A program made the translations under genes and the position numbers. The notes beneath the pieces were generated by a model. It searched no databases, was not told the origin of the DNA, and saw only the letters and a program-made list of their open reading frames with translations. DNA of 64,000 bases from NCBI GenBank assembly GCA_033763315.1, contig JANRKS010000032.1:480001-544000 (forward strand), written 5' to 3'. This document shows positions 7,261-59,001 of the stretch, one piece after another (the stretch's first letter is position 1; each line of letters opens with the position of its first letter). This stretch comes from Deltaproteobacteria bacterium (GTDB taxonomy: Bacteria; Myxococcota_A; Polyangia; Fen-1088).

Positions 7261-7276
7261 TGGCCTGCTCTATGCA
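7261..7276 (+). promoter_or_regulatory. sigma54-like promoter TGGCCTGCTCTATGCA
   Basis: GG-N10-GC spacing, upstream of the 7313 gene and csbD. Confidence 0.5.
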
Positions 7277-7312
7277 TAAGTCACGAGGTGAACCCAATAA
7301 AGCAGGTGCAGG

Positions 7313-7831
7313 ATGGACCTTTTTACGGAATCAGCTCGTGGTGGCAACAACATAACAGGCTTGCGTAACTTCGCGTGCGTGGGTTTGTGCGTGGCCGCCT
7401 TAGGCGCTTGTGGCACAAGTGGAGCCGAACATAAACGCAGCGAATATGGGGCCACGATGTCATCCACCTGCCCGGCACCCATCAAGCGCAGCGTGGTGCG
7501 CGTTGTGTACGGACCACGGCAAGCCACGGCTGTGTGGATGTTGCCCGCAGGCATGCTTGGTTCAAAGTCGCCTCACGATCTTGCGGTGCTGCAACAACAC
7601 GTTGCTGACCTTGCGGAGCGCATGACGGCGGAGTCGGTCGGAACTGCCGATCGCATCGTTCGCTACGAACCCAGCGAATCCGGTGCCGCGATCACTGTTG
7701 AGGATTCGAACGTGGATCGTCTGGATACCACACGCGAAGAATTTGATCGTTACGCAGCTTTATCGAACCAAGGCGAATGCGCTACCACGGCCCTGCTCAA
7801 CGTTGCGGCCTCTGTAGCCTCCGCTGATTAA
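7313..7831 (+). CDS. Hypothetical lipoprotein
   Basis: Lipobox LGAC after a hydrophobic stretch; start uncertain. Confidence 0.55.
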   Translation: MDLFTESARGGNNITGLRNFACVGLCVAALGACGTSGAEHKRSEYGATMSSTCPAPIKRSVVRVVYGPRQATAVWMLPAGMLGSKSPHDLAVLQQHVADLAERMTAESVGTADRIVRYEPSESGAAITVEDSNVDRLDTTREEFDRYAALSNQGECATTALLNVAASVASAD

Positions 7832-7873
7832 CAACCCACGGCCCATAAGCGGCCCCACAGAAAGGTAAACGTC

Positions 7874-8071
7874 ATGAATTGGGACCATGTAGAAGGCAAA
7901 TGGAACGAGTTCAAAGGCCAATTGCGCTCCAAGTGGGCGAAGCTGACCGATGACGATTGGAACCAGATCGGTGGCAAGAAGGACCAACTTTTGGGTCGCT
8001 TGCAACAGCGCTATGGGTATCAGCGTGACGAAGCTGAACGCGAAGTTGATTCATTCATAAAGTCCATCTGA
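7874..8071 (+). CDS. CsbD/YjbJ family general stress protein
   Basis: MNWDHVEGKWNEFKGQLRSKWAKLTDDD...LQQRYG; RBS AAAGG. Confidence 0.95.
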   Translation: MNWDHVEGKWNEFKGQLRSKWAKLTDDDWNQIGGKKDQLLGRLQQRYGYQRDEAEREVDSFIKSI

Positions 8072-8092
8072 ACAATCAATAACTCAACATTT

Positions 8093-8127
8093 AAACGCCG
8101 GAGGGGATCATGCCTCTTCGGCGTTTT
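8093..8127 (+). terminator. Intrinsic terminator after csbD-like gene
   Basis: AAACGCCGGAGG...CCTCTTCGGCGTTTT hairpin followed by a T tract. Confidence 0.7.
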
Positions 8128-8274
8128 CCATTTTCTATTTCTCTCCCGGCATAGTCGCTCCTTTTCGTAGTGATCAAGGAACGCTTGCGCGGGCATGTTT
8201 CCAATATGTCCCGATCACGCGCCTCATACCCGAACAAACCCCAGATTTGTAACGATATCGCTGCGAGTTTCCTT

Positions 8275-8290
8275 CGGCACACTGCTTGCT
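8275..8290 (+). promoter_or_regulatory. sigma54-like promoter CGGCACACTGCTTGCT
   Basis: Near-consensus GGCAC-N5-TTGC. Confidence 0.7.
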
Positions 8291-8364: not shown

Positions 8365-9084
8365 ATGAAGACCGCAATTTCGACTTTGGGTATGGGCGTT
8401 GTGATGTCGATTCTGGGTTTGCAAACCACGGCACAAGCACAGGTCGTTGTGCCCGATCCAGATCCAAACGGCACTCAGGTGGGAGCGGGTGCACCTTCTG
8501 AGGCATTGCCTCCTCCTCGGTCAGACAACGATGCACAGCCACCGGTGGCTGCACCTATGGCACCTGGCGTGGGTGTAACCAAGCAAGCTGGTGTTGGTGG
8601 GACGCAAGCGTACGGTCGTGCAGGCGTGCTGGAGTTGGGTGGCTCGGGTGGCTTCTCTATCTCTGATCGTTACAACCGCTTCGAATTGGCTCCTTCGGTT
8701 GGTTTGTTCATTGCTGACAACCTGGAGATCTCCGTGATTGGCGCTTACAGCCGGGTTCACGTGGACGGCCAAGGCACCTCGCCCGGTGCCACGGCCTCTG
8801 AGTTCAAGCTCCTTTTGGAGCCAAGCTACCACTTGCCATTCTCTGAGGTGCTCTTCGGGTTTTTCGGCTTGGGCGCGGGTGTGAAATACCTCTCGGGTCA
8901 AGACACTGGTTTCGCCTTGGCTCCTCGCTTGGGCTTAAACATCCTGATCGGTCGCTCAGGCATCCTCTCGCCTTCACTGAACGTCGATTACTCGACTGTT
9001 GACGTGATCAACACGCCAAGCGGAACTGTGGTGGGTGTTCAGACCTCATACGGGATGAACATTGGCTACACCGTGATGTGGTAA
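8365..9084 (+). CDS. Small outer-membrane beta-barrel protein
   Basis: Signal peptide, Pro-rich linker, amphipathic strands, terminal aromatic (YTVMW); RBS AGGAG. Confidence 0.75.
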   Translation: MKTAISTLGMGVVMSILGLQTTAQAQVVVPDPDPNGTQVGAGAPSEALPPPRSDNDAQPPVAAPMAPGVGVTKQAGVGGTQAYGRAGVLELGGSGGFSISDRYNRFELAPSVGLFIADNLEISVIGAYSRVHVDGQGTSPGATASEFKLLLEPSYHLPFSEVLFGFFGLGAGVKYLSGQDTGFALAPRLGLNILIGRSGILSPSLNVDYSTVDVINTPSGTVVGVQTSYGMNIGYTVMW

Positions 9085-9106: not shown

Positions 9107-9748
9107 ATGCGCTTACTTTTAATTTCGACTGTTCTGTGTGTGGGGTTCGGTTTAGGAGCATGCAAACGGCCAGCGGACAAAGATGTTGTTGAGCCAGGCA
9201 TGCAAGGACAACAGAACAGTATGGGCGGCATGGTGGGTGTTGTGGCAGGTGCGGCGGGTATGGGTGGGGCTGCGGCAGCAGCGGCAGGTGGCGAACCTCT
9301 GCATGCCGATGAGGTTCCGCAAGCCGGATCGAATGCGGCTGCCGTTCAAGGGGCGGGTGGGGCTGCGGTGGCAGCCTCAGCAGATGACGCAACACCAATG
9401 ACAGCAGAGGAAAGTGCGACTTACCACAAGCTGTGCCACTTCGTTCTCAAACGGATGGCGGCGTGTGCAAAGGATCCCGGCTTTCTCAAATACCAGGGCC
9501 GCTGGACAAGCAAGGGCGCACCAAAAGCGGGTGGTCCCAGTTTCGAGAAACGAATTATTTCTTGGGGCGCTGAGGGCGAGCGCGCCAACAGCTGTAAGAG
9601 TTGGTCGACACGTCCGGGCACGCGCGCTCACTTCGTAACGAAGGGCAAGCTTTCAAGCTTGAATGAAGACTCGAAGCTGTCGTGCGAAATGTTCGGGCAA
9701 GAGTTAGACGACGACGGTTGGTTCCCGGCGACGTTGAGCGACACATAG
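9107..9748 (+). CDS. Hypothetical lipoprotein
   Basis: Lipobox LGAC, Ala/Gly linker, C-terminal domain with 4 Cys. Confidence 0.65.
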   Translation: MRLLLISTVLCVGFGLGACKRPADKDVVEPGMQGQQNSMGGMVGVVAGAAGMGGAAAAAAGGEPLHADEVPQAGSNAAAVQGAGGAAVAASADDATPMTAEESATYHKLCHFVLKRMAACAKDPGFLKYQGRWTSKGAPKAGGPSFEKRIISWGAEGERANSCKSWSTRPGTRAHFVTKGKLSSLNEDSKLSCEMFGQELDDDGWFPATLSDT

Positions 9749-9925: not shown

Positions 9926-9941
9926 TGGCATGGGAGTTGCT
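9926..9941 (+). promoter_or_regulatory. sigma54-like promoter TGGCATGGGAGTTGCT
   Basis: Near-consensus; ends 26 nt before ATG 9967, which has a GGAGGA RBS. Confidence 0.75.
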
Positions 9942-9966: not shown

Positions 9967-10449
9967 ATGAATCCAGTGAAACTTGGACTGTTGGTTGGGA
10001 TCTTGGGAATGGGTTCTGTGGGCAACGTAGCGTTGGCTGCAGACAAAGCAGCGCAGAAGGATCGGATCGAGGATCGCGCTGACCAGAAAAAGGATCAGAT
10101 TGATCGCAACGCTGACCGGCAAAAGGCGAAGGTGGATGAGGACGCCGAGCGGGCCAAGGATCGCGTTGACGGCAAGGATCGTGATGGCAAGGTCACCGCA
10201 AACGAAAAGACGAGCGTGGGTGAGGAGGTGACCGACGCATGGATCACCACCAAGGTGAAAAGCAGCTTCATTGGAGAAGACGCTCTCAAGGGATCCGACA
10301 TCAGTGTGGACACGGAGAACAAGGGTGTGGTGGTGCTCACGGGCACGGCTCCCACGGTGGGTGCGCGCTTGCGTGCGGCTTCACTCGCGGCGTCCGTTAA
10401 GGGCGTGCGCAGCGTTCGCAATGACATCCGCATTGCGCCCGCACGTTAA
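9967..10449 (+). CDS. BON-domain (OsmY-like) exported protein
   Basis: Signal peptide; DAWITTKVKS...ISVDT..GVVVLTG...GVRSVRNDI; start moved to ATG 9967 on RBS evidence. Confidence 0.9.
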   Translation: MNPVKLGLLVGILGMGSVGNVALAADKAAQKDRIEDRADQKKDQIDRNADRQKAKVDEDAERAKDRVDGKDRDGKVTANEKTSVGEEVTDAWITTKVKSSFIGEDALKGSDISVDTENKGVVVLTGTAPTVGARLRAASLAASVKGVRSVRNDIRIAPAR

Positions 10450-10524: not shown

Positions 10525-11436
10525 ATGTGGATTGAGAACGTCCATTCGCACCACCAAGAGTCACCCACAGTGGCTCGGAAGCAGACGTTTCGTGCACTCG
10601 GCAAGATGTTGTGGGACGCCGCGAAGATGTGGCTCGACAAGAAATCGCCTCGCTTAGGCGCCTCGTTGTCGTACTACGCCGTGTTTTCAATTGCTCCGAC
10701 GCTGCTGGTGGCCCTTTCAATCGCGGGTCTGGTGCTGGGAAGCGACGCCGCTCAAGGGCGCGTGCTTGATGAATTGAAGACCGTGCTTGGCCCCGACGCC
10801 GCGCAACTGGTTCAAACGATGCTCGCCAAATCGTCCGAGCAAAAATCAGGCATCGTTGGCTCGATCGTGGGGATCGTCACTTTGATTCTAGGCGCCACTG
10901 CCGTGATGGTGGAACTGCAGGCGGCGCTCGACATCCTGTGGGATACGGCGCCGCGGACCTCGGGAATCAAAGCGTTGATCAAAGAGCGAATCCTATCGCT
11001 GGCGCTCGTATTGACTGTGGGCTTTTTGTTGGTGGTGTCGTTGTTGGTCAGTGCGGCCATGGTGGCGGTCTCGAATAGCCTTGGTCGGTACATGCCTGGC
11101 ATGGTGGTGCTGGGAACCATTCTGAACAACGTGGTGTCGTTCGGCGTGCTCACCGTGTTCTTTGCGTTGGTGTTTAAATATCTGCCAAACGCGAAGGTGG
11201 CTTGGAAGGACGTCTGGATGGGCGGTCTGCTCACTTCGGCGCTGTTCCAGTTAGGTCGTGCGCTCATTGCGCTTTACATTGGGCGTGCGGGCGTATCTTC
11301 GACGTTCGGTGCCGCCGGTTCGTTGGCTGTGTTGTTGGTTTGGGTTTACTACTCGTCGCAGATTGTTCTTATGGGGGCCGCTGTGACCCGGCTGTGGGCG
11401 GAGCGATTCGGTGGCGGCGCGCCGCGTGGCACGTAA
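10525..11436 (+). CDS. YihY/BrkB family membrane protein
   Basis: GASLSYYAVFSIAP...FGAAGSLAVLLVWVYYSSQI. Confidence 0.92.
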   Translation: MWIENVHSHHQESPTVARKQTFRALGKMLWDAAKMWLDKKSPRLGASLSYYAVFSIAPTLLVALSIAGLVLGSDAAQGRVLDELKTVLGPDAAQLVQTMLAKSSEQKSGIVGSIVGIVTLILGATAVMVELQAALDILWDTAPRTSGIKALIKERILSLALVLTVGFLLVVSLLVSAAMVAVSNSLGRYMPGMVVLGTILNNVVSFGVLTVFFALVFKYLPNAKVAWKDVWMGGLLTSALFQLGRALIALYIGRAGVSSTFGAAGSLAVLLVWVYYSSQIVLMGAAVTRLWAERFGGGAPRGT

Positions 11437-11509
11437 CGCCATCGCACCCCCGGTTACGTCTTTGTGACCGAAATCGTCGTAAATCCTGGGTGCGGAAACA
11501 GGCGTTTTG

Positions 11510-11525
11510 CGGCGTGGGATTTGCA
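11510..11525 (+). promoter_or_regulatory. sigma54-like promoter CGGCGTGGGATTTGCA
   Basis: GG-N10-GC, heads the kinase-cheR-cheB operon; GTAAC-N15-GTTAC upstream at 11433-11457. Confidence 0.55.
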
Positions 11526-11545: not shown

Positions 11546-13276
11546 ATGCCTTCTCCAATTCCGGCGGCCACCCAAAGCCCAACTCCGGCCCCAGCGGCCA
11601 AGGCGGCTGTTTTACTGGTGGACGATAACCCGCACAACTTGGCTGCATTCGAGGCGTCGCTCGATGGCATAGACGCGGAGCTCATCAAATCAACCTCCGG
11701 TGAGCATGCGCTTAGGCAACTGTTGTCGCGCAACGACTTTGCGGTGGTGGTGCTCGACGTTCAGATGCCCATGATGGACGGGTTCGAGACGGCGCGCCTG
11801 ATGCGCTCGCGGCAGCGCAACCAGCAAACGCCCATCATCTTCGTGACCGCATACTCCCGCGACGACGTGCAGGTTCTTGAGGCCTATAAAATGGGCGCCG
11901 TCGACTTCTTGTTTAAGCCCATCACGCCCGAGGTTTTGCGCGCGAAAACGTCGGTGTTTATCGATCTGCACAAACGCTCGGAACAAGTGCGGATGCAGTC
12001 TGAGCTGCTGCGGGAGCACGAACGCCGCGAACATGAGCGGCTGTTGGAAGAAGAGAAGCGCGCTTGGGACGAATCAGCCATGCGCGGACGCCTTGAAGAA
12101 CTGGCGCGATCCGATCAACGCAAGGATGAGTTTCTTGCGATGTTGGGACACGAGTTGCGTACGCCTTTGGCGCCCATCGTGACGGCGCTTCATCTGCTCA
12201 AAGAACGGTTGGGCAACGCTGAGGACGTGGGCTCGCCCGAAGGGAAGATCTTGGCGACCGTGGAACGGCAGATGTCGCATCTGCGTCGTTTGGTCGACGA
12301 TCTGCTTGATATTTCGCGGATCAATTCAGGAAAGATCGAACTTAACCTCGTTGAGGTGTGTCTTGCGGCCCTGGTGAACGAGGTCGTGCAGGGGCTCATG
12401 CCCGCCGCGCAAGAAAGACAACACACACTTGAAGTTGAAATGCCGAGTGAACCTTTGGTGGTCAAAGGTGACGCCGTTCGGCTGACTCAGATCGCGACGA
12501 ACCTGCTGCAGAACGCGTTCCGTTATACAGAGCCGGGCGGACGCATCCGGGTGGGCGTGGTCCGACGCGGCAACGCGGTTGAACTTTACGTCACGGACAA
12601 TGGCACAGGCATTGAGCCGCAATTGCTTTCGGGGGTGTTCGACATGTTCGTGCAGCGGCGCTCGGGCGCCAATGGCGGACTTGGCGTGGGATTGACGCTG
12701 GTGCGGCGTTTGGTGGAGTTACACAGCGGCACGGTGCTGGCATCGAGTGAGGGGCTTGGCAAAGGCAGCCAGTTCACAGTGACGCTGCCCCTGCTTTACG
12801 CCGGCATCCGCGCCAAGGAAAACTGCGAGCACGCTGAAGCGCACGGCGTGGCGCAAGAGCCTCCCCAACTGACGAGCAGCGCTGACTTGCCTGTCGTCGC
12901 CGCCGCGGGAGACTCGGGTACGGTGGCGGTGATCGATGACAACGAAGACATTCGCGAAACCTTGCGCGAATTGCTGGAAGCTTGGAACTACAGCGTGCGC
13001 TGTGCAGGCGATGGCATTGAAGGCGTGGCTTTGATCCTTGAACACAAGCCCGTTGTGTCGTTCGTCGACGTTGGCATGCCACGCATGGATGGCTTCGCCT
13101 TGGCGAGGGAAATTCGCGGACGCTTAGGCGCCGCACCCACGCTGGTGGCGATGACAGGTTTTGGCCGGCCAAGCGATTTCGCTGAGGCCGCCGCCTCAGG
13201 TTTCAACGGCTATTTGGTCAAGCCCATCGACGTCAAAGATCTGCGCAAATTTCTGCCGGCCCCACCCAAAACATGA
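11546..13276 (+). CDS. Hybrid kinase REC-HisKA-HATPase-REC
   Basis: N-terminal REC (LDVQMP), H box [10 protein letters not shown] boxes, C-terminal REC; start set at ATG 11546. Confidence 0.9.
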
Positions 13277-16200
13277 CAACCACGTCCACCCCCAAAACCG
13301 CCTCCACAAAAGTACGTTCGGCTTCCAACGGCAACGGCGCCTCGCACGCCTCGCCCGTCTTGGACAAAGCATCAGACAAGGCATTCGAGAAAGCCATTCT
13401 CGCTGGTTTGCGGCGTTTGCAGCGCGGCGAATTCGACGCGCGCTTGCCACTTGACCTTGTGGGTACGCAGGGACAAATCGCCGAATCATTCAACGAGGTG
13501 GCCAGCCTTTTGTCTGCACAGGTGGCAGATATGCGCGCGCTGCGCTCCGAGGTGGCTGAGGAAGGGCGCCTGCACAAACGCATGCAGCGGGGCAGCGCCA
13601 AAGGCGGATGGTTGCAGCTGGCAAGCGACACCAACGCCCTGTTGGAGTCGTTGACAGAGCATACGGCCGACGTCATGCGCGTGGTGACGGCGCTTGGCAA
13701 GGGCGATTTCTCGCAACAAGTCGATCCCGACGGGCGCGACGGACCGCTCAAAGGCGATTTCCTGCGGCACGCCCGCGTGCTCAATGGCTTCACTTTGCAA
13801 CTGGTGAATCTCACCGAGGAGATCACAAAAGCGGCTGACTCGATTGCTGTGGAAGGCAAGCTTGGCACGCGTGTGCATGCACGCGGGGTGGCGGGTGCTT
13901 GGAAGGAATTGACAGCAGGCTTCAACCGCGTGGCCAGCAACCTTTCGGAACAGGTGCGCGAGATCGCTGAAGTCACAACTTTGGTGGCGCAAGGCGATCT
14001 GTCTAAGACAGTGAGCGTTGAAGCCAAGGGCGAGATGCTGGCGCTCAAAAAGACAATCAACACGATGGTGGCGCAGCTGGAAGCTTTTGCGTCCGAGGTG
14101 TCGCGTGTGGCGCGCGAGGTGGGCACCGAAGGCATTCTCGGCGGGCAAGCCCGCGTGCGGGGCGTTTCAGGTATTTGGCAAGAGTTGACCGAGAACGTCA
14201 ATTCGATGGCGCACAACCTGACGTCGCAGGTGCGCAACATCTCTGAAGTTTCAAGCGCCATTGCGCGCGGCGATCTGTCGCGAAAGATCTCGGTTGAAGT
14301 CAAAGGCGAGCTTCTTGACCTCAAGAACACCATCAACACAACGGTGGATCGCTTGGGCGCCTTCGCCGCGGAAGTGACGCGTGTGGCACGCGAGGTGGGC
14401 ACCGAAGGCGTGCTGGGCGGGCAGGCCACAGTTAACGGCGTCTCGGGCGTGTGGCGCGAGCTCACCGAGAGCGTCAATGGCATGGCCAACAACCTGACCA
14501 TGCAGGTGCGCAACATCGCCGAGGTGGTGACGGCGATCGCGCAAGGCGATCTGCGCCACAAGATCACCGTGGAAGCGCGTGGTGAAATCCAAACCTTGAA
14601 GGCAACGATCAACACGACGGTGGATAAGCTCAACCGTTTCGCGGCGCAGGTGTCGCGCGTGGCTCGATTGGTGGGCACCGAAGGCACGCTCGGTGTGCAA
14701 GCCGAAGTGTCGGAAGTCTCGGGCGTGTGGCGTGAACTCACCGACAACGTGAATCAAATGGGCCGCAACCTGACGAACCAGGTGCGCGACATTGCCACGG
14801 TCACAACGGCTGTGGCCAACGGCGATCTGACCAAGAAGATCACAGTGGAGGTTCGTGGTGAGTTGCTGCAGCTGAAAAACACCATCAACACGATGGTGGA
14901 TCAACTGAGCACGTTCGCTGATCAGGTTACGCGGTTGGCCACCGAAGTGGGCACCGAAGGCAAGCTGGGCGGGCAAGCCGACGTGCGCGGCGCTGCCGGC
15001 ACGTGGCGCCACCTGACCGATGCCGTCAACTCGATGGCGAACAATCTGACCCTGCAGGTGCGAAATATCTCGCAAGCCGCCACCGCGATCGCGGCCGGCG
15101 ATCTCACGCGCAAGATTGAGGTCGAAGCGCGTGGCGAAGTGTTGGAAGTGAAGAACACCTTCAATGCGATGCTTGACCAACTGGGTGCGTTCGCGGCGGA
15201 AGTGAGCCGTGTGGCACGCGAGGTGGGGATGGACGGCCGCCTGGGCGCGCAAGCTTCAGTGGCTGGCGTGCGCGGCATCTGGAAGGAGCTCACCGACAAC
15301 GTCAACCTGTTGGCCAGCAACCTCACCAGCCAGGTGCGTGACATCGCGCAGGTGGCCTCGGCCATCGCCCAAGGCGATTTAAGCCGCAAAGTGACCGTGG
15401 AAGTGCGGGGCGAAATTTTTGAACTCAAGAGCACGATCAACACCATGGTGGATCAGCTGAGCAGCTTCGCGGCCGAAGTGACGCGCGTGTCAAGAGACGT
15501 GGGCGTCGAAGGGGTCTTGGGGGGGCAGGCCGCGGTACGGGGCGTCTCCGGCGTGTGGCGTGAGCTCACGGACAACGTGAACTTAATGGCCAGCAACCTA
15601 ACCAATCAGGTGCGCGACATCGCTGAAGTCACGACCGCTGTGGCGAACGGTGATCTGACCCGCAAGATCACGGTGGAGGTGCGCGGCGAATTGGCCGAGC
15701 TGAAGAAGACCATCAACACGATGGTGGATCAGCTCAATGCCTTCGGCGCCGAAGTGAGCCGTGTGGCGCGCGAGGTCGGCACCGAAGGCGTCCTGGGTGG
15801 GCAAGCCAATGTGCCGGGCATTTCCGGGGTCTGGAAAGAGCTCACAGACAACGTGAACTTGATGGCCCGCAACCTGACGGCGCAGGTGGGCGGTATCGCG
15901 CGCGTCGTGACCGCGGTGGCACGCGGGGATCTTACCCAGAAGCTGGCGCTTGAGGCGCGCGGCGAGATTGCGTCTTTGGTCGATACGATCAACGGCATGA
16001 TTGATACGCTTTCGGTGTTTGCACAACAGGTCACCGGCGTGGCCAGGGACGTGGGTGTCGAAGGGCGCTTGGGGGGGCAAGCGGATGTGCCGGGCGCCGC
16101 AGGCCTGTGGCGCGATCTCACCAACAACGTGAACGAACTCGCCGGCAACCTCACGCGACAGGTGCGCGCCATTGGTGACGTGGCTACGGCCGTGACGAAG

Positions 16201-19032: not shown

Positions 19033-19050
19033 CCGGAAAGGGGGAGGGCC

Positions 19051-19881: not shown

Positions 19882-19882
19882 G

Positions 19883-45963: not shown

Positions 45964-45973
45964 CCTCCTAATA

Positions 45974-45989: not shown

Positions 45990-46099
45990 ACGCAACGCCC
46001 GCCGTTTGGGTCGACAAAAGCCGCTCATTCAACGGAGCGCCGTCCCAAAGCCGTTACGCGCATCGTGGTTCGGTAACGTCGTGCACCTCCGCAGATCGT

Positions 46100-46115
46100 C
46101 GGCATACGCCCTGCA
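46100..46115 (+). promoter_or_regulatory. sigma54-like promoter CGGCATACGCCCTGCA
   Basis: GG-N10-GC upstream of tspO-tamA-tamB. Confidence 0.55.
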
Positions 46116-46133
46116 CATACGATTGCCGAGGCA

Positions 46134-46640
46134 ATGAAGACAGTGAACAACACATCGGAAACAACTCGCAAACGCAGCTGGGTTTGGGGCGCAGCGGCCG
46201 TGGTGGGAGCCACCATCGGAGCTGCTGCTTTGGGTGCAACAACGTCTCGCCCCGGCTTGTGGTATCACCAGTTAAGGAAGCCGGTGGGAACACCACCCAA
46301 CGCCGCTTTTGGTCCGGTGTGGACTTTGCTCTACATGGGCATCGCCTATGCCGGTGTCCGTTTGGTGAGAGCCCCCGCCTCACCTGAGCGCAGCAAAGCG
46401 CTCGCGTGGTGGAGCACACAGCTCGCGCTCAACGCCGCTTGGTCGCCAGTGTTCTTCGGCGTGAAACAGCCAGCGGCCGCGATGGTGATCATCGGTGCTT
46501 TGGTGCCTGCGATTGCCGCCACAACAAATGCCGCCCGTAAGGTGGATGGTCCCAGCGCCGTGTTGATGTTGCCGTACTTGGCGTGGACCTCGTACGCAAC
46601 GTATTTGAACGCCGGCATCTTGCTGAAGAACCACGTCTAG
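46134..46640 (+). CDS. tspO: TspO/MBR tryptophan-rich sensory protein
   Basis: WYHQLRKP..TPP...FGPVWTLLY, QLALNAAWSPVFF, LPYLAW. Confidence 0.93.
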   Translation: MKTVNNTSETTRKRSWVWGAAAVVGATIGAAALGATTSRPGLWYHQLRKPVGTPPNAAFGPVWTLLYMGIAYAGVRLVRAPASPERSKALAWWSTQLALNAAWSPVFFGVKQPAAAMVIIGALVPAIAATTNAARKVDGPSAVLMLPYLAWTSYATYLNAGILLKNHV

Positions 46641-52860: not shown

Positions 52861-52963
52861 TGGTTGTGTAACGGCAGACCCGCCCGTTACCGCCCTGACA
52901 CGCATTTTCTGAAAATCGAAGGCCATCTGAGTGTAAGTGGGGCCGATGCACATGTGTCGCAAG

Positions 52964-52979
52964 TGGCACGAGACTTGAA
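52964..52979 (+). promoter_or_regulatory. sigma54-like promoter TGGCACGAGACTTGAA
   Basis: Perfect -24 element; GTAAC-N13-GTTAC upstream at 52868-52890. Confidence 0.65.
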
Positions 52980-53033: not shown

Positions 53034-53306
53034 ATGAATCCAGCGTACGGCATCATCATGTGGGTCATTATTGGGGCATTGGCAGGTTGGATCGGCAGCA
53101 AGATCATGGGTACCGACGCTCGCCAAGGTGGTTTGGCCAACATCATCATCGGCATCATCGGCGCTGTGGTTGGTGGCTTCATTGCCCGCGCTGTCTTCGG
53201 TGATAGTTCGTCAAACAACGGATTCATCGCCAGCACGGTTGTGGCGCTGTTGGGCTCCATCATCGTCATCGGCATTTGGAAAGCGTTGTCACGACGCACA
53301 GCCTGA
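53034..53306 (+). CDS. GlsB/YeaQ/YmgE family stress-response membrane protein
   Basis: WVIIGALAGWIGSKIM...NIIIGIIGAVVGGFI. Confidence 0.92.
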   Translation: MNPAYGIIMWVIIGALAGWIGSKIMGTDARQGGLANIIIGIIGAVVGGFIARAVFGDSSSNNGFIASTVVALLGSIIVIGIWKALSRRTA

Positions 53307-53349: not shown

Positions 53350-54492
53350 GTGGCGATGTCACGAGGCGGACGAAGGGCGTTAATCGCGCTGGGGGTGGTT
53401 ATAGGTGTCTGCCTTTTGATTCGGGTGGTTCTTGACCCGCTGGCGACGTGGGCGATTCGTCGCCAGCTCAAGAAAACACCTGGTATGGATGGCGTTATTG
53501 CCGGTGCGCACGTTTCAATTGTGCCGCCGGGTTTGACGATTGATCGCCTAAAGTTGATCGAAGTGCCTGGCGGTTCGTGGAAAGAGCCGCTGTTCTACGC
53601 AGAACGCATTGAGGGCGGTTTGTTGTGGCGCGCCCTGTTTGAGGGCGATTTGGTGATGAAGGCACGAATCGAGAAGCCGAAGGTTGTGGTTTACCGCCGT
53701 GCCAAATCGAAGGCCAGCAAAGGCATTGATCTGGCAACCATGCTCGAGAAGCAAGCGCCCGTGAAGGTGGCACGCATTGAAGTGGTTGATGGCGAGCTGA
53801 CGCTTGCAGCGGGCGAAGGCAAGGACAACCCCACTATATGGCTGCATGATTTTGAGATCGTGGCGCAGAACCTGGCTTCGCGAAAAGATCTGGGCGAAGG
53901 GCGTCCTGCCACGGTAATGGCGCGCGGAAAGCTGCAACGCACGGCCACGGTCGAAATGTTCGCAACATTGGATCCGTGGAATAAGGGCCTCAATTTTTCT
54001 GGGCGTGCTTCCATGCGCGGCCTTGGCGGTTCGGACATCAATGGATTGCTTGCGGCCAAGGGCGATATGGTCCTTAAAGCAGGCACGGTTGATCTGTTCT
54101 CTGAATTCGACGTGCGCAAAGGTGTGATCTCGGGCGGCGTGAAACCCGTGCTCAAGAACATCGAAGTGCGCTCTGCCGATGACGGTTTGTGGAACCGTTT
54201 CAAGGCGTGGGTGGTGGATGAATCCTTGGACATTCTGTCTGACGACGTGCCAGGCAGGGACGCTGTGGCCACTGTGGTCCCCTTGAAGGGGCGCATCGAT
54301 GCGCCGGAGGCGCAAATTACGCCTGCGATCATCGGCGTCATTCGCAATGCATTTGTGGTGGGCCTGCGTTCTGGGTTTTCACATTTGCCGCCGCCGCAGG
54401 CCGGCGAAAAAGAATCCACCGTGAAACAGATCAAAGAGGGCCTCGATCGTAAGAAGGGGCCCCCAGAGGCACAACCAAGCAAGAAGTCATGA
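53350..54492 (+). CDS. DUF748-like AsmA-family protein
   Basis: N-terminal TM, beta-rich body, ISGGVKPVLKNIEV...VATVVPLKG...VIRNAFV. Confidence 0.7.
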   Translation: MAMSRGGRRALIALGVVIGVCLLIRVVLDPLATWAIRRQLKKTPGMDGVIAGAHVSIVPPGLTIDRLKLIEVPGGSWKEPLFYAERIEGGLLWRALFEGDLVMKARIEKPKVVVYRRAKSKASKGIDLATMLEKQAPVKVARIEVVDGELTLAAGEGKDNPTIWLHDFEIVAQNLASRKDLGEGRPATVMARGKLQRTATVEMFATLDPWNKGLNFSGRASMRGLGGSDINGLLAAKGDMVLKAGTVDLFSEFDVRKGVISGGVKPVLKNIEVRSADDGLWNRFKAWVVDESLDILSDDVPGRDAVATVVPLKGRIDAPEAQITPAIIGVIRNAFVVGLRSGFSHLPPPQAGEKESTVKQIKEGLDRKKGPPEAQPSKKS

Positions 54493-54914
54493 TGTACGCA
54501 TTTGTGAAACGCGCTCTGTTTATCGGATTGATGGTCATCGCGCCTGGGGCCTGCAGCCACACCAAAGAAGTGGAAAGCGGATCGGAGGCCAGCAAGGCAG
54601 CGAAGCCCGAGAAACAAGACAATGCCGCCACCTCATCGACCAGGGCCAAGCCGGCCTCGCGTGGCCGGGGAAACGACGACGTCCCGTTGGCCAGCGACCC
54701 GCTACGGATGCTGACACCCGAGGGCCAAAAGGCTTTGCGTGAAGAACTTAAGCGCCGCGACTTGTTGCAAGAGCAAGGGTCAGTGCCAGCGGCCCTGCGC
54801 AAGTTTCAAGCGTCGCAAGGCATTCCCGAGACGGGCATGCCCGACGATGAGACGCTCAAACGGTTGGGGCTTGATCCAAACGATGTGGTTGTGCGGGTGC
54901 GCCCCGCGACGTAG
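54489..54914 (+). CDS. Lipoprotein with peptidoglycan-binding domain
   Basis: Lipobox PGAC; ALRKFQASQGIPETGMPDDETLKRLG. Confidence 0.8.
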   Translation: MMYAFVKRALFIGLMVIAPGACSHTKEVESGSEASKAAKPEKQDNAATSSTRAKPASRGRGNDDVPLASDPLRMLTPEGQKALREELKRRDLLQEQGSVPAALRKFQASQGIPETGMPDDETLKRLGLDPNDVVVRVRPAT

Positions 54915-55938
54915 TTTTGCTTTTGGTCTCTGCGGTGTGGCCAGCGACCACGTCGTGAACAAAGCGCAGCTTGGCGATGGCCGCCGCTGACAACGCGAAG
55001 GGATACCAATCCAGGTGACCCATCGAACGGTTCAGCCCGTTGAGCGCGAACGTCAACGGATACCAGTAGGCCATCATCGCGTCGAATTTGTCGCCTGGAG
55101 CGGCGGGCAACTTCAGCTTCTCGGTGTCAGCGCCGGTTGTGGGATCCTTGCGCGGCCGCAATTGCACGCCGTATGAACGCCCGGTGTCCACGGCGTCAAC
55201 GATGTGAAGATAATGCGCCCATGTTTCCGCCCAGTCTTCCCAGGGGTGCATGGATGCATAGGCGCTCACGCAGCGGCTGCTCCAGTCAGGCGGCGCGCCC
55301 TCTGAATAGTGCCGCTTAAGCGCCTCATCATAGCTTACGCGTTCATCGCCAAACACCTCGCGAAATCCCGCCAAGCGGCTCTCTGAAGGCGCCACCAGCA
55401 AATCCCAATAATAGTGACCCACCTCGTGTCGCAGGTGGCCGAGCAGCGTTCGGTAAGGTTCACCAAGGCTCAACCGCAACGTCTCGCGAAAAGGGCTGTC
55501 AGCCTCCTTCACGTTAAGCGTGATGACGCCGTCGGCGTGTCCCGTGATCACAGGGGCTCCGTCTTGCGGCATCAACAGATCGAAGGTCAATCCCGATGGT
55601 GACTGCAGCTTTGATTGGATGGGCAGCTTCAGATCCAAAAGCTCGTACACCAAGCGCCGCTTGGCGGCTTCAATCTTCTGCCACCCTAACCGTGCATCTG
55701 CGTCGGCTTTGTTGGGAATGGTTCGGTTGAGGCTGCAACACACGCACAACGAATCTTCGGCGGGTGCCAGCCAATTGCAGCCCCCGTCCGCGAAGTTCGC
55801 ACAACGCTTGTGCTCCGTTGTCACCACAACCAATCCTGCGGCCGTCGGGTCAAACGCCAGAGAAGTTTGGCAATGCACGCATTGCACGTTCTCGAAATAG
55901 CTGACTTCTTCACACTGTGGACACGCAAAAAGCCTCAT
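54856..55938 (-). CDS. Zinc-ribbon plus putative zinc-binding metallopeptidase
   Basis: N-terminal CxxC pairs; HLRHEVGHYYW; HPWEDWAETWAHYLH; start ATG 55938. Confidence 0.88.
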   Translation of the reverse strand: MRLFACPQCEEVSYFENVQCVHCQTSLAFDPTAAGLVVVTTEHKRCANFADGGCNWLAPAEDSLCVCCSLNRTIPNKADADARLGWQKIEAAKRRLVYELLDLKLPIQSKLQSPSGLTFDLLMPQDGAPVITGHADGVITLNVKEADSPFRETLRLSLGEPYRTLLGHLRHEVGHYYWDLLVAPSESRLAGFREVFGDERVSYDEALKRHYSEGAPPDWSSRCVSAYASMHPWEDWAETWAHYLHIVDAVDTGRSYGVQLRPRKDPTTGADTEKLKLPAAPGDKFDAMMAYWYPLTFALNGLNRSMGHLDWYPFALSAAAIAKLRFVHDVVAGHTAETKSKTTSRGAPAQPHRLDQAPTV

Positions 55939-55953
55939 TGCGATGGGGGTGAG

Positions 55954-55969
55954 TGCAAGGCATGTGCCC
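55954..55969 (-). promoter_or_regulatory. sigma54-like promoter GGGCACATGCCTTGCA
   Basis: GGCAC-N5-TTGCA. Confidence 0.65.
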
Positions 55970-56094
55970 CCTCTATGTGACATTTCAAGTCGCCTAGGAA
56001 CGATCGCTGTATCGCCCGTGTTACGGTTGAGGACTCACGTGCATGGGCGGTAACGGTCCTTGGGCACCTCGCCTCATTTAGGCAACATCCAGAT

Positions 56095-56110
56095 TGGCAC
56101 GGACCTTGTT
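56095..56110 (+). promoter_or_regulatory. sigma54-like promoter TGGCACGGACCTTGTT
   Basis: Perfect -24 element, -12 GT variant. Confidence 0.6.
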
Positions 56111-56122
56111 ATCGGTGGTCAC

Positions 56123-58273
56123 ATGCGCCTTGAGCCAGGAAAAACCTGCTGGACCGTGGAGACCGGAAGCCAAGTGAAGCTGCTCGTTGATGCGGCCGCT
56201 TACTACGAAGACCTGCGGCGGTCCTGCACACGCGCGCGCCACAGCATTTATCTGCTGGGCTGGGACATCGATTCGCGAACGCCGCTGCACGGTGAGCGAC
56301 CGCCCGATGACGGACTGCCGGCGCAGTTGCTGCCGTTTCTTACGGCGCTACTCGAACGCACGCCCAGCCTGAACGTTTACATCCTCGCGTGGGACTTCGC
56401 GTTGTTGTACGTGTGGGAACGGCAAACCTTGCCCTCCTACCGCTTCGCATGGGAAGGTCACGAGCGGCTCACATTTCGGATGGATGATCATCACCCGCCA
56501 GGGGCCTCACATCATCAGAAGATGGTCGTCATCGACGATGCGGTGGCGTTTTGTGGCGGGATCGATCTAACACTGGCGCGGTGGGATACGAACGCGCACC
56601 TGGCGAACGACCCGCGGCGAACGACGCCCGACGGGAACACTCACCATCCCATGCACGACGCACAACTGGCGGTGTCGGGCCCCGCGGCCCGCAAGCTTGG
56701 AGACTTGTTTCGGGAACGTTGGCGCTGCGCTCAAGACACTTCGTTGCCCGCGCCGCCGCTGGGCCAGCTTGCCCTCGACCATGCGGAGCTGACGGACGTG
56801 AAGGTCGGGATTTGCCGAACCATGTGCCACGATGAAAGCCAATGCATCACCGAGGTGGAGGCGCTGACCGTCACCGCCATCCGCGAAGCCAAGGAACACA
56901 TTTACATCGAGAACCAATATCTCTCGTCGGCCGCCGTGGGTCGTGCCCTGCAGGAAAGTCTGAGCCAACCGCAGGGGCCCGAAATCCTCATCGTGCTGCC
57001 CAAGGCCGAATCCGGCTGGCTGGAACAAGAGTCGATGGGATTGCTTAAACAGCGGCTGTTGGCAGGCCTTCGTAAGGCCGACGTGGGAAAACGGCTGCGC
57101 GTGCTTTATCCATTTGTTCGTGCCGAAGACGGACGCGAGGTTGACGTTTACGTGCACAGCAAACTCGTGTTCGTGGATCACCAGTTCGCCAAAGTTGGAT
57201 CTTCGAATCTGAGCAATCGATCGATGCGGCTCGACAGCGAGTGTGACCTTGCCATCTTGGCCTACGGCAATGGCACTGTGAGCCGCGCCATCGCCGGGTG
57301 GCGCGCGCGCTTGTTGGCGGAGCACCTGGGGCTGACGGTTGAGCACGTTGAACAGGGCCTGCAGGAACAAGGCATGCTGGCCTTTATTGACACTCAGGCA
57401 AAGAACGAGCGCGGCCTTCGGCCGGTTCCTGAAACGGTGATCACGGATCCCAATTTTGATTTCAGCGTTTACGACGGCGTGTTCTCCGATCCTGAAAAGC
57501 CGCTCAGTGCCGAAGCTTTGTTGGGCGAAGCCATGCCCGAGCCGCAACGGCGCTTGGTGCGCAGCACGTTGGCGCTATACACCGTGGTGGCGCTCGTCAT
57601 CTTGGGCGGCCTAGTGGCCGCGAAGCTCGGCTGGCTGTCGCCGCAGGTCACGGCGGCTGCCGCCTGGTTTCACGCAAAGCTTGAGCCCTACCTGGACTCG
57701 CTGCCCGGTTGGATTGGCTTGGGCTTGGCCACAGCTTTGGTCACCAGCGTGTTTGTGCCGCTTAGTATAACGATGGCCACCGTGTGCGTGCTGACGCCCG
57801 GTTGGCCCGCCTTCGGCATTCTCTTTTCGGGCGCGCTCTCTGCTGCCCTTGGCACCTACTGGGTGGGGCGTTTGTTCCTGCAAGAGCTGCATATACCGTG
57901 GCTGCAGCGGCGCACCCAAAAGCTGCGGCCGCGCCTTCGCCATGGCGGCTTCCTGGCTGTGCTCATTGCACGCTTGGTGCCCGTCGGCAGCTTCACCTTG
58001 ATCAATCTCGTGGCCGGTGCCTTGCGTATTCCTTTTCCAGCGTACGCGTTAGCCAATGCCGTTGGCTTGTTACCGGGCATCACCTTGATGTCGCTGCTCT
58101 CCGGGAGGTTTGCGGCCTACTGGCAGCACGCCAACACACGCAACGCTGTGGTCGCGGGGTTGTCTGTGTGCCTTTTGTTGGGCGGCTTCGCTCTCATCGG
58201 CTACTTGGTGCGCCGACAACTGGGGGCCCGTCGATCACGTGGCGACGTGGCGCCTGTGCAGGAAGGTGCGTAG
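56123..58273 (+). CDS. Phospholipase D (two HKD motifs) fused to a VTT/DedA domain
   Basis: HHQKMVVID and HSKLVFVD; C-terminal ARLVPVGSFTLINLVAG; start ATG 56123. Confidence 0.9.
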   Translation: MRLEPGKTCWTVETGSQVKLLVDAAAYYEDLRRSCTRARHSIYLLGWDIDSRTPLHGERPPDDGLPAQLLPFLTALLERTPSLNVYILAWDFALLYVWERQTLPSYRFAWEGHERLTFRMDDHHPPGASHHQKMVVIDDAVAFCGGIDLTLARWDTNAHLANDPRRTTPDGNTHHPMHDAQLAVSGPAARKLGDLFRERWRCAQDTSLPAPPLGQLALDHAELTDVKVGICRTMCHDESQCITEVEALTVTAIREAKEHIYIENQYLSSAAVGRALQESLSQPQGPEILIVLPKAESGWLEQESMGLLKQRLLAGLRKADVGKRLRVLYPFVRAEDGREVDVYVHSKLVFVDHQFAKVGSSNLSNRSMRLDSECDLAILAYGNGTVSRAIAGWRARLLAEHLGLTVEHVEQGLQEQGMLAFIDTQAKNERGLRPVPETVITDPNFDFSVYDGVFSDPEKPLSAEALLGEAMPEPQRRLVRSTLALYTVVALVILGGLVAAKLGWLSPQVTAAAAWFHAKLEPYLDSLPGWIGLGLATALVTSVFVPLSITMATVCVLTPGWPAFGILFSGALSAALGTYWVGRLFLQELHIPWLQRRTQKLRPRLRHGGFLAVLIARLVPVGSFTLINLVAGALRIPFPAYALANAVGLLPGITLMSLLSGRFAAYWQHANTRNAVVAGLSVCLLLGGFALIGYLVRRQLGARRSRGDVAPVQEGA

Positions 58274-58275
58274 CG

Positions 58276-59001
58276 TTGGCTTGCTCGTTGCGGGTTGGGA
58301 CCTATAACGTCCACGGGTGCGTTGGCACCGACGGCGCGTTCTCTGTGGCACGGGTGGCCCAGGTCATCTGTGAGCTCAACGTGCATCTCATTGGTCTGCA
58401 GGAGATTCATTGTGCTTCGGCGTCGGAGCACCGCGAGCTTGATGAATTGGCGACGCTTACGGGCTTGTTGCCTGTCAACGGCGGCGTGCGCCTGAACCAC
58501 CGTGGTTACTACGGCAATGCGCTGCTTACCAAGTTGCCCGTCCTGTCCCAGGCACGCATTGACTTGACTGTGAAAGGGCGCGAGCCACGTGGTGCGTTGG
58601 ACGTGGTGTTGGCCGCTTCTGAAGGGCGGCAGTTGCGCGTGATCGTCACGCACCTCGGACTGGCCGCCTGGGAACGACGCGAACAAGCGCGGCGGTTGGT
58701 GTCGGCATTGGCCGCCACGGCGTCTACGCATGCGGCAACGATTTTGCTGGGTGATTTGAACGAATGGCTGCTGTGGGGTCGCCCCTTGCGGTGGCTACAC
58801 GCCGCTTTGGGCAAAAGCGCGCACCTCGGAACGTTTCCGTCGCACCTGCCCGTCTTGGCGCTGGATCGCATCTGGGTGAACCCACGGTCGGTGCTGCGCA
58901 AAACAACACGACGTTGGACGGCTAAGACGCGGGTGGCGTCCGATCATTTGCCGCTGGTGGGGGAGCTCACGTTGCCGGAGCATCCGACGAAGACAGCTTA
59001 G
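58276..59001 (+). CDS. Endonuclease/exonuclease/phosphatase family protein (YbhP-like)
   Basis: TYNVH, LQE, GNALL, THLGL, GDLNEW, LDRI, SDHLP; start probably TTG 58276. Confidence 0.88.
   Translation: MACSLRVGTYNVHGCVGTDGAFSVARVAQVICELNVHLIGLQEIHCASASEHRELDELATLTGLLPVNGGVRLNHRGYYGNALLTKLPVLSQARIDLTVKGREPRGALDVVLAASEGRQLRVIVTHLGLAAWERREQARRLVSALAATASTHAATILLGDLNEWLLWGRPLRWLHAALGKSAHLGTFPSHLPVLALDRIWVNPRSVLRKTTRRWTAKTRVASDHLPLVGELTLPEHPTKTA

Follow-up and report, generated by a model that had tools for sequence, protein, structure and literature searches.

General stress responses are, in the textbook account, controlled by an alternative sigma factor that belongs to the sigma-70 family and is dedicated to this task, and the locus described here raises the question of whether a cluster of such stress genes is instead read by sigma-54. 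The locus lies in a 64,000-nt stretch of a genome labelled Deltaproteobacteria bacterium (contig JANRKS010000032.1, positions 480,001 to 544,000), referred to below as the window, and comprises about 45 genes at 7.2-59 kb, delimited from open reading frames (ORFs), a codon-usage score and Pfam matches. CsbD, BON/OsmY, YtxH, GlsB/YeaQ, YqjE-type, Usp and ferritin-like proteins and the enzymes of trehalose synthesis are families of the sigmaS, sigmaB and EcfG regulons. Sigma-54 promoters are silent until an ATPase activator acts on them, hence their tight, switch-like and signal-gated expression. The promoters, their placement, a shared upstream repeat, the domains of a resident activator and the conservation of these elements in relatives were computed here. 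We consider it probable that the cluster is a conserved, probably autoregulated two-component sigma-54 regulon for stress or dormancy under the resident activator.

An earlier note on this DNA had listed 23 sites of the form (T/C)GG-N10-G(C/A/T), and all of them are present where it placed them, the coordinate of a minus-strand site being the 5' end of its motif. As a statistic that literal pattern was rejected, because it is not discriminating (1343 matches in the window against 1225 ± 31 in shuffled sequence), but the listed sites agree with the complete sigma-54 consensus. All positions of the window were scored against a fixed textbook consensus, TGGCAC[GA]-N4-TTGC[AT], with 12 positions, of which the GG and the G at -13 are obligatory. 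Eleven of the 23 sites reach 11/12, six reach 10, five reach 9 (7261, 11510, 28524, 33871 and 46100) and one reaches 8 (37597, minus strand), that is, 22/23 score at least 9 and 17/23 at least 10. The exact string TGGCAC-N5-TTG shows nine matches in the window against 1.16 ± 1.12 expected, and 54 matches with at most one mismatch against 25.5 ± 5.6 expected. The comparison with shuffled sequence that had been proposed for the genome, run here within the window, shows 17 sites of at least 10 in the non-coding segments (5,142 nt), against 0.93 ± 1.0, with a maximum of 5, in 500 dinucleotide shuffles. Non-coding DNA directly upstream of a co-oriented gene, which makes up 4.0% of the strand-positions, holds 16/32 of the window sites of at least 10 (binomial p 1.5e-14) and 10/12 of those of at least 11. 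The eleventh of these twelve (20466) lies within the final codons of cheB, 24 nt ahead of the gene that follows, and the lone exception (6079) is within the MFS gene. Among the sites of at least 10 that lie wholly in non-coding DNA none is wrongly oriented, and only 45989(-) has no gene downstream. As had been claimed, 22/23 sites precede a co-oriented ORF, which begins 9-75 nt after the motif, five back-to-back pairs occur, with paired motifs 110-149 nt apart, and no site of at least 9 in the right orientation stands before leuS, the MFS gene or lhr. Within the cluster the consensus reads TGGCAC(G/A)-N3-CTTG(C/A/T)(A/T). Sequence, spacing, placement and orientation support the assignment of these sites as sigma-54-type promoters. 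Beyond the 23, sites were found at 39199-39214 (-), before the activator gene, and at 28396-28411 (-), before a PAS kinase, and weaker candidates at 58277 (+) and 60968-60983 (-); the cluster would hold at least 24, and probably 25-27, promoters of this type.

An unbiased comparison of k-mers in the 180 nt upstream of the promoters with those in the rest of the window brings out a second element, GTAAC/GTTAC. In this comparison CGGTAACG has five copies in the window, 5/5 upstream of promoters, and 29/56 window copies of GTAAC/GTTAC are in the 8.2% of the DNA that is non-coding (p 2e-17). Pairs at most 35 bp apart number 10 against 1.7 expected, with spacings of 11, 16, 18, 20, 20, 21, 30, 30, 31 and 31, most of them near multiples of the helical turn. 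The repeat is located about 45-110 nt upstream of the -24 element, mid-way between the motifs in the back-to-back pairs, and within 160 nt at least two copies are found at 12/23 listed promoters and one copy at six. The hallmark stress families share the promoter type and this repeat, five promoters being without it.

The resident GAFTGA protein that had been put forward as candidate regulator, encoded at 37679-39088 on the minus strand, is by its predicted domains a complete NtrC-type enhancer-binding protein with the organisation REC-AAA+-HTH_8. Pfam identifies the receiver (PF00072, E 2e-33), the AAA+ sigma-54 interaction domain (PF00158 Sigma54_activat, E 4e-71), AAA_lid_14 and the Fis-type HTH (PF02954 HTH_8, E 2.5e-13), and the motifs GAFTGA, Walker A GESGTGKE and LFLDEIGE are read in its sequence. 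In the best 25 of 119 matched NCBIfam families, which include NtrC, AtoC, ZraR, GlrR, NtrX and PspF, the protein is below the equivalog cut-offs, its best match being TIGR01818 ntrC with 458.5 bits against a cut-off of 558.6. A CHASE-domain histidine kinase, with a GTG start at 39209 or 39260 and its end at 41050, is encoded divergently and is the most likely partner of the activator. The putative kinase promoter is TGGCACACCGCTTGTA (39181-39196, +, 11/12), conserved in the related locus L001, and that of the activator gene is AGGCACGGTTCTTGTA (39199-39214, -, 10/12), 111 nt before the gene and conserved in L001 as AGGCACGTTTCTTGAA. Two degenerate dyads, GATAC-N6-GTAAC and GTACC-N6-GTAAC, 21 bp apart, are found at 39104-39140 between the activator gene and the kinase promoter. 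Between the window and L001 (79% protein identity) the only conserved blocks of the spacer are the two face-to-face promoters and the two dyads. With a gap of 2 nt, the two promoters make up a palindrome of 34 bp that is nearly perfect (TGGCACACCGCTTGTA AC TACAAGAACCGTGCCT), with the same arrangement in L001 (533-567); both holoenzymes cannot fit there together, so the kinase and activator genes may compete. The kinase adjoining the activator is of the CHASE type in the window and L001, of the MEDS-PAS type in L003 and L025 and of the PAS type in L006, and the input therefore seems exchangeable and the output conserved.

A scan of contigs with the activator gives 36 loci, among which L001-L027 are relatives of 53-79% identity, almost all from metagenome-assembled genomes labelled Myxococcota, Polyangia or Myxococcales; no Myxococcus xanthus record is among the 36. 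Judged from these best hits only, the window probably derives from a member of Myxococcota near the genomes labelled Polyangia. No block synteny is conserved between the window and the related loci, and the neighbours in the relatives include homologues of YtxH, the 75-aa protein, the YqjE-type protein, DUF2383, TreY, BON, Peptidase_Mx, fumarase, the 106-aa and 239-aa ORFs, the glycine-zipper protein, DUF4398/OmpA, DUF748 and BrkB. Of 23 orthologue rows, 22 were usable; in the other one the gene extends past the end of the locus. A site of at least 10 within 250 nt upstream is present in 11/22 rows, against 4.0% of 4,000 random windows from the same loci (p 2e-10), and a site of at least 11 in 7/22, against 1.05% of random windows (p 2e-9). 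At least two copies of GTAAC/GTTAC within 150 nt upstream accompany 29/122 sites of at least 10 in the loci, against a background of 1.4% (p 3e-27). The repeat spacings in the relatives peak at 11 and 20, and GTTAC-N6-GTAAC (12 cases) and GTAAC-N15-GTTAC (14 cases) prevail among the forms, which implies two 16-bp dyads 31 bp apart; the perfect dyad GTTAC-N6-GTAAC is present in 12/27 loci. A site of at least 10, often plus 2-4 copies of the repeat, is found upstream in 12/32 rows of activator homologues, and in L002 and L003 such a site precedes a co-oriented NTP-transferase gene, which the activator gene follows. In comparative genomics, binding by a regulator is usually argued from a motif that accompanies the regulator gene from genome to genome and is present at the promoter of that gene. 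The shared repeat before most promoters and, in relatives, before the activator gene is as a common regulator predicts, and we infer that the activator binds it. That the linkage of activator, promoter type and stress genes recurs in related genomes is supported by these counts.

The targets predicted in the relatives belong in part to the same families. Pfam was run on 52 of 67 ORFs (119 candidates) downstream of sites of at least 11 or with at least one repeat, activator genes being excluded. Usp was found in L006, L016, L017 and L019, two ferritin-like proteins, a CDGSH protein and an AI-2E transporter in L011, BON in L009, DUF5670 in L002, YtxH in L024, CBS in L022 and Ser/Thr kinases in L005 and L009; several kinases and receivers are also among them, and 23/52 ORFs show no Pfam match. 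Genes encoding sigma factors of the sigma-32 subfamily are located under sigma-54-type sites with 2-3 repeats in four loci (L003:14242-14916, L004:14540-15712, L010:3609-4571(-) and L025:16753-17931), with a perfect dyad ahead of the gene in L003, L004 and L025. With NF005143 (cut-off 241) they score 257.6 in L004, 263.8 in L025 and 232.9 in L010, and the ORF of L003 is cut by the contig end. This arrangement suggests a cascade from sigma-54 to a sigma-32-like factor in these relatives.

Several of the related loci differ in the arrangement of the activator gene. L005 (8494-11347) and L009 (4654-7577) show two activator paralogues in tandem, and L008 (7941-12988) shows two that are separated by about 2.3 kb, in which a Peptidase_Mx gene lies; these paralogues are 61-67% identical to the window activator and have a site of at least 10 upstream of the second copy only. 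In L012-L017 and L021, with activator relatives of 56-61%, the activator gene directly follows a kinase resembling the ETR1_N kinase of the window (23535-24755), and several of them show a divergent sigma-54 site with 1-3 repeats before tandem-Usp (L016, L017) or unknown proteins. These activators may form a sister subfamily with its own kinase. L027, a contig of 702,882 bases labelled Acidobacteriota, contains an activator homologue with 58% identity over 59% of the length, possibly interrupted, with an upstream site, TGGCACATCGCTTGAA, identical to the window site at 20912, three copies of GTAAC/GTTAC and a YtxH gene nearby; either the system is present outside Myxococcota, or the contig is mislabelled, or the region was transferred.

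The mechanism proposed from these elements starts with a sensor kinase, most likely the divergent CHASE kinase and in relatives other kinases, which would phosphorylate the receiver domain of the activator. Judged from the gene families only, the signal would be a stress, such as drying, osmotic upshift, starvation or dormancy. The activator would assemble on GTAAC/GTTAC half-sites, with GTTAC-N6-GTAAC as the ideal form, on one helix face about 45-110 nt upstream of the -24 element, and back-to-back promoters would share one enhancer. Its AAA+ domain would, via the GAFTGA loop, spend ATP to open closed complexes of sigma-54 RNA polymerase at about 25 promoters of the form TGGCAC-N5-TTG(C/A/T)(A/T). 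The own sigma-54 promoters of the activator and kinase genes would provide feedback, and the dyads, which both in the window and in L001 fall within the activator leader, would also permit self-limitation. The outputs would be small stress proteins of the membrane or associated with the ribosome, trehalose made from glycogen (GlgX, TreY), remodelling of the envelope, further sensors and a G-rich RNA (45962 to about 45795, minus strand). In the relatives the same signals would drive Usp, ferritin-like and sigma-32-family genes, and the response may continue there as a sigma cascade. On a wider scale it is proposed, tentatively and as somewhat less likely than not, that a clade of Polyangia-like Myxococcota possesses a fourth general-stress or dormancy architecture beside sigmaS, sigmaB and EcfG, with one autoregulated activator, dyads and about two dozen clustered operons, including a small RNA and sensors, and with the sigma-32 cascade of the relatives.

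A number of findings weigh against a sigma-54 stress regulon under the resident activator. The canonical C of the -12 element is present in 12/24 aligned sites, with A in six and T in six, five listed sites reach only 9 and one only 8, and non-coding sites at exactly 9 number 10 against about 4.8 by chance. The gene starts are our own calls from ORFs and Pfam rather than those of a trained gene finder. A Pfam scan of the ORFs found no rpoN gene in the 64-kb window; the presence of sigma-54 is expected because a GAFTGA activator is encoded and the phylum is known to use this factor. Five promoters (9926, 20466, 20912, 26900 and 44658) lack GTAAC/GTTAC within 160 nt, and control by one master regulator is therefore not established. 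The window contains just one perfect dyad (28461) and two degenerate ones beside the activator gene (39104, 39125), and the dyads of the activator promoter are located downstream of it, in the leader, not upstream. The conservation before orthologues that the earlier note had looked to stands for half of the rows, while the other 11/22 are without a site of at least 10: BON (two), YtxH (five), Peptidase_Mx, TreY (L010), and the 106-aa ORF and one DUF2383, both of which score 9. Several of these siteless orthologues come after another, co-oriented cluster gene and may be inner members of operons. Likewise, 20/32 rows of activator homologues are without a site of at least 10. In addition, the same promoter and repeat stand before a sigma-32-family gene in relatives, so that sigma-54 may top, rather than replace, a second sigma factor.

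The motifs could be chance matches or sites of another factor, such as an ECF sigma factor or a palindrome-binding repressor, as would agree with the chance-level count of the literal pattern, the non-canonical half of the -12 elements and the near-palindromic 39181/39214 pair. This is very improbable in view of the enrichment, placement and orientation statistics, the 10-nt spacing from GG to G, against the 16-18-nt spacers of -35/-10 promoters, the conservation of sites upstream of orthologues and the GAFTGA activator encoded in the cluster itself. The uneven distribution of the repeat bears on an explanation of another kind, in which the sigma-54 promoters are genuine and serve several enhancer-binding proteins, the resident activator runs the repeat-bearing subset only and the cluster is a place where several regulons meet. 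We hold it to be unlikely. It would account for the 5/23 promoters without the repeat in 160 nt and the six with one copy, it agrees with the two activator paralogues of L005, L008 and L009 and with the seven histidine kinases and the Ser/Thr kinase encoded in the window, and Myxococcota are rich in activators: 53 are reported for M. xanthus, in which rpoN is essential (PMC3162934, PMC12316311). A second shared motif, though, was not found, no 8-mer being common to at least three of the seven tested promoters with zero or one GTAAC/GTTAC, and orthologues of the repeat-less genes adjoin the activator in relatives: DUF2383 in L008 and L024, DUF4398 in L011 and the NTP transferase in L002 and L003. 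The repeat is moreover present before some of these orthologues, with three copies before DUF2383 in L024 and two before DUF4398 in L011.

The cluster could also belong to a developmental or dormancy programme, that is, the maturation of a spore, cyst or resting cell, which would be switched on once in differentiation and not by many stresses. TreY and GlgX are under sigma-54-type promoters in the window, a sigma-32-family sigma factor is under such promoters in relatives, and the cluster contains envelope-remodelling genes (OmpA, Omp85/TamB, PLD, peptidoglycan-binding (PG-binding) and peptidase). Sporulation of M. xanthus induces treY, treS, otsAB, rpoN and the sigma-32-like sigB, and several enhancer-binding proteins are needed for it (PMC2875238). 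No known sporulation or fruiting-body gene, however, was recognised among the window ORFs scanned by Pfam. The hallmark families of the cluster (CsbD, BON, YtxH, Transgly_assoc, YqjE-type, Usp and ferritin-like) typify the general stress regulons of non-sporulators, and we regard a purely developmental programme as somewhat unlikely. The preferred reading is still that of a stress or dormancy regulon under the resident two-component activator, and the gene content and the individual promoters are described below with this reading in mind.

The cluster is flanked by leuS, an MFS transporter gene, tRNA-Thr (2285-2359) and lhr. The GC content of the window is about 59%, with a range of 0.55-0.62 throughout and no compositional break, and no integrase or transposase domain was found among the scanned ORFs; the "island" is therefore a gene cluster and not a mobile element. 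A domain scan of 55 window ORFs confirms CsbD, BON, YtxH, Phage_holin_3_6 (YqjE type), DUF5670, Transgly_assoc, TspO, hemerythrin, DUF2383 and CBS by Pfam, and further members are a glycine-zipper protein, DUF4398 and an OmpA-family protein. TreY and GlgX are above the cut-offs of their NCBIfam equivalogs (TIGR02401, 866.8 bits against 498.65, and TIGR02100, 971.9 bits against 640.9). The stress gene content previously assigned from the sequence is thus confirmed for most of these families, but not for ElaB/YqjD: DUF883 shows no Pfam match at E<=1 in the 75-aa and 120-aa ORFs, and the 75-aa protein, in which a charged, helical N-terminal portion is followed by a membrane anchor at the C terminus, has an ElaB/YqjD-like layout by eye only. 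The envelope genes encode BrkB, two AI-2E transporters, Omp85/TamB, DUF748, a PG-binding protein, Peptidase_Mx and a PLD-VTT fusion, and the signalling genes of the window are, besides the eight kinases mentioned, those encoding CheR and CheB. The 172-, 239-, 213-, 106-, 94-, 120- and 75-aa ORFs show no match in Pfam (E<=1) or NCBIfam. In the ORF list the 120-aa ORF shares 53 nt (33463-33515) with the 75-aa ORF, so its true start is probably downstream of the listed one. The listed starts of GlgX (31594), the CHASE kinase (39164) and Peptidase_Mx (55983) likewise precede the promoters of these genes, and the genes must be shorter.

In the left part of the cluster, the putative promoter TGGCCTGCTCTATGCA (7261-7276, +, 9/12), with one GTAAC/GTTAC within 160 nt upstream, stands before the 172-aa ORF (7313-7831) and CsbD (7874-8071). 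It is followed by CGGCACACTGCTTGCT (8275-8290, +, 11/12), before the 239-aa ORF (8365-9084), whose orthologue in L024 also has an 11/12 site, and the 213-aa ORF (9107-9748), and by TGGCATGGGAGTTGCT (9926-9941, +, 11/12, no repeat within 160 nt), before the BON gene (9967-10449) and BrkB (10525-11436). The operon predicted downstream of CGGCGTGGGATTTGCA (11510-11525, +, 9/12), at 11570-20482, contains a REC-HisKA-HATPase-REC hybrid kinase (11570-13276), a 1919-aa HAMP-array kinase (13273-19032) with nine HAMP matches, GAF, HisKA/HATPase and three receivers, CheR (19051-19881) and CheB (to 20482). GTAAC-N15-GTTAC is found at 11433-11457, upstream of this promoter, and L002, L004 and L025 show a score-10 site and two copies of GTAAC/GTTAC ahead of a REC-PAS-GAF kinase, which may be compared with this operon. 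A hybrid kinase together with a CheR-type methyltransferase presumably resembles the RsbK/RsbM sensor of the sigmaB stress response of Bacillus cereus. Within the HAMP-array kinase gene the same 16-mer, TGGCACGCGAGGTGGG, occurs at 14384-14399 and 15212-15227, 828 nt apart; the copies reflect internal repeats of HAMP modules and are not promoters.

The site in the 3' end of cheB, TGGCACGAGACTTGTA (20466-20481, +, 11/12), precedes the acidic 106-aa ORF (20505-20825), and TGGCACATCGCTTGAA (20912-20927, +, 11/12) precedes DUF2383 (20951-21403), whose orthologues have sites of score 10 in L008 and 11 in L024. On the minus strand, TGGCTCGGTTTGTGCA (23385-23400, 10/12) stands before the glycine-zipper protein (22865-23362) and a class II fumarase (21461-22861), and TGGCACGATTCGTGCT (26885-26900, 11/12) before DUF4398 (26495-26830) and the OmpA-family protein (25508-26491); the corresponding orthologues in L011 have a score-10 site and an 11/12 site, respectively. 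The candidate promoter GGGCACAAGCTCTGCG (28396-28411, -, 9/12), before a PAS kinase (26914-28359), is back to back with TGGCATCGCTCTTGAA (28524-28539, +, 9/12), before a CBS-pair protein (28564-29118), and the perfect dyad GTTACtcgcctGTAAC (28461-28476) is between the two. The minus-strand site is a probable sixth back-to-back partner, with a weak score and with support from its placement and the shared dyad only.

GlgX (29180-31408) is preceded by TGGTACTCGTTTTGCT (31424-31439, -, 10/12), and YtxH (31652-31915), whose orthologue in L024 has an 11/12 site, together with a 94-aa Cys-rich ORF (31955-32239), by CGGCACGACTATTGAA (31589-31604, +, 10/12). Downstream of TGGCACAGGTCTTGTA (33725-33740, -, 11/12) a four-gene operon (33690-32492) would encode the 75-aa tail-anchored protein, the 120-aa membrane protein, the Phage_holin_3_6 (YqjE-type) protein and a 77-aa protein; 11/12 sites stand before 3/3 orthologues of the 75-aa gene (L006, L008 and L010). 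Two GTTAC half-sites, 30 bp apart (33782-33816), separate this promoter from TGGCCTGTAACGTGCA (33871-33886, +, 9/12), before two genes encoding AI-2E-family transporters (33948-36244), and an AI-2E gene in L011 has an 11/12 site. The weakest listed site, TGGCCTCGTTCTTGTA (37582-37597, -, 8/12), stands before DUF5670 (37382-37555) and the Ser/Thr kinase (36225-37385). At the equivalent position in L002, L003, L004 and L025, score-10 sites stand before ORFs of 50-65 aa, and Pfam, run on those of L002 and L004, gives DUF5670 in L002 and nothing in L004.

To the right of the activator and its kinase, TGGAACGGCGGTTGCA (41651-41666, -, 11/12) stands before hemerythrin (41098-41625) and TGGCACGTTTCTCGAA (41784-41799, +, 10/12) before TreY, a malto-oligosyltrehalose synthase (ORF 41808-44645, true start probably slightly downstream), with two GTAAC half-sites, 31 bp apart, between them (41707-41742). 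A sugar-phosphate nucleotidyltransferase (44702-45640), whose orthologues in L002 and L003 have score-10 sites, follows CGGCACGAATCATGCT (44658-44673, +, 10/12). TspO (46134-46640), an Omp85-family protein (46691-48730) and a TamB-family protein (48730-52860) follow CGGCATACGCCCTGCA (46100-46115, +, 9/12). Transgly_assoc of the GlsB/YeaQ type (53034-53306), DUF748 (53350-54492) and the PG-binding protein (54489-54914) follow TGGCACGAGACTTGAA (52964-52979, +, 11/12), which has GTAAC-N13-GTTAC upstream (52868-52890). The last back-to-back pair consists of GGGCACATGCCTTGCA (55954-55969, -, 11/12), before the Peptidase_Mx zinc peptidase (ORF 54856-55983, start taken as 55920, downstream of the promoter), and TGGCACGGACCTTGTT (56095-56110, +, 11/12), before the PLD-VTT fusion (to 58273) and a gene of the endonuclease/exonuclease/phosphatase family (to 59001); GTTAC and GTAAC, 30 bp apart, are between them (56020-56054). 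A possible promoter without other support, TGGAAAACTCGTTGCT (60968-60983, -, 10/12), is located beyond the range of the earlier note, 121 nt before a PAS kinase-receiver gene (58967-60847). At the other end of the window, the 818-nt gap upstream of tRNA-Thr contains a palindromic pair of weak sigma-54-like motifs, GGGCACAGCGATTGTGCCA (1967-1985), which scores 9 on either strand and is far from ORF starts.

The one listed site that heads a stretch without a convincing ORF, as had been described, is TGGCATGTGACTTGAA (45974-45989, -, 10/12), and the stretch is G-rich. The site is paired with the TspO promoter, and GTTAC-N15-GTAAC is located between the two (46053-46077). The candidate non-coding transcript, of about 165 nt (45795-45962, -), is G-rich and C-poor, contains no plausible ORF and has ends deduced from the sequence; read by eye, a GC hairpin, GGACGCCG...CGGCGTCC, followed by a short T run, GCGTTTTCG, is found at its 3' end. 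A simple terminator scan did not list this hairpin, Rfam shows no match at E<=1 on 45600-46140, and tRNA-Thr alone in the whole window, and the fold of the candidate RNA is not more stable than that of shuffled sequences (z +1.16). The segment may encode a sigma-54-dependent small RNA.

The classical general stress responses, sigmaS in Enterobacteria, sigmaB in Firmicutes and EcfG-PhyR-NepR in Alphaproteobacteria, overlap with the cluster in their effector families. They differ from it in that the cluster has -24/-12 promoters that need an ATPase activator, and a predicted two-component phosphorelay in place of partner switching or proteolysis. None of the 55 window ORFs scanned encodes a Sigma70-family, anti-sigma, STAS or PhyR-like protein, the hallmarks of sigmaB- or EcfG-type loci among them. 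In E. coli, PspF and the psp genes combine sigma-54 and an activator for envelope stress, with a PspF that has no receiver and is held by PspA, and with two promoters. The activator of the window reaches 254 bits with the PspF model, below the cut-off of 444.

Closer likenesses are found in the same phylum. Nla28 of M. xanthus is an autoregulated starvation-stress regulator, for which up to 70 promoters and 140 genes have been proposed (PMC9765219). Nla28 and Nla6 share with the regulon proposed for the cluster an activator of the NtrC family with a partner kinase and an autoregulated activator gene, and Nla28 also shares tandem half-sites upstream of -24/-12 promoters and dozens of target promoters (PMC9765219). 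The Nla28 half-site, by contrast, is CT[C/G]CG[C/G]AG, against GTAAC/GTTAC here, and its named confirmed targets are mainly regulators and pilA, which in the available text are not described as one cluster and do not include the hallmark stress families (PMC9765219). The activator of the window reaches no named NCBIfam equivalog, and the likeness to Nla28 described here is one of features. NmpR, an NtrC-like regulator of oxygen utilisation in M. xanthus, likewise shows dyad pairs upstream of sigma-54 promoters and Usp and CBS targets, but its dyad is GCGCA-N5-TGCGC, seven promoters are bound and the theme is respiration (PMC11841059). Outside the phylum, a response-regulator activator and sigma-54 switch on a stress-type sigma gene in the Rrp2-RpoN-RpoS pathway of Borrelia burgdorferi, as predicted for the relatives L003, L004, L010 and L025 (PMC2940757, PMC3037356). 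As far as these sources describe it, the Borrelia pathway has essentially one sigma-54 promoter, that of rpoS, whereas about two dozen effector operons would be read directly by sigma-54 here, and its cascade includes a sigma gene, none of which was found in the window.

The cluster departs from the known systems in its enhancer sequence, in its content of hallmark stress families, in how tightly the genes are clustered and in how many promoters would be read directly. No description of such a regulon was found in the literature searched, in which subscription journals are not covered, and to this extent the suggestion that the architecture is undescribed holds; sigma-54 control of starvation stress through an enhancer-binding protein is already known from Nla28 (PMC9765219). 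In a 2025 cross-phylum survey of sigma-54 regulons the terms "trehalose" and "general stress" are absent from the main text, and the COG numbers assumed for CsbD, YtxH, BON, GlsB and TreY are absent from its supplements as far as these were covered (PMC12316311).

If the regulon is as proposed, the same effector set, CsbD, BON, YtxH, GlsB-type, Usp, ferritin-like proteins and trehalose synthesis, would have been recruited under a mechanistically different regime. The locus provides about 25 natural sigma-54-type promoters and one candidate enhancer sequence, a set that includes back-to-back and face-to-face pairs and many non-canonical -12 elements and would be useful for studies of promoter strength and silencing. 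For the uncultured soil Myxococcota it would provide a testable regulon, with its promoter, upstream dyad, activator and candidate kinase.

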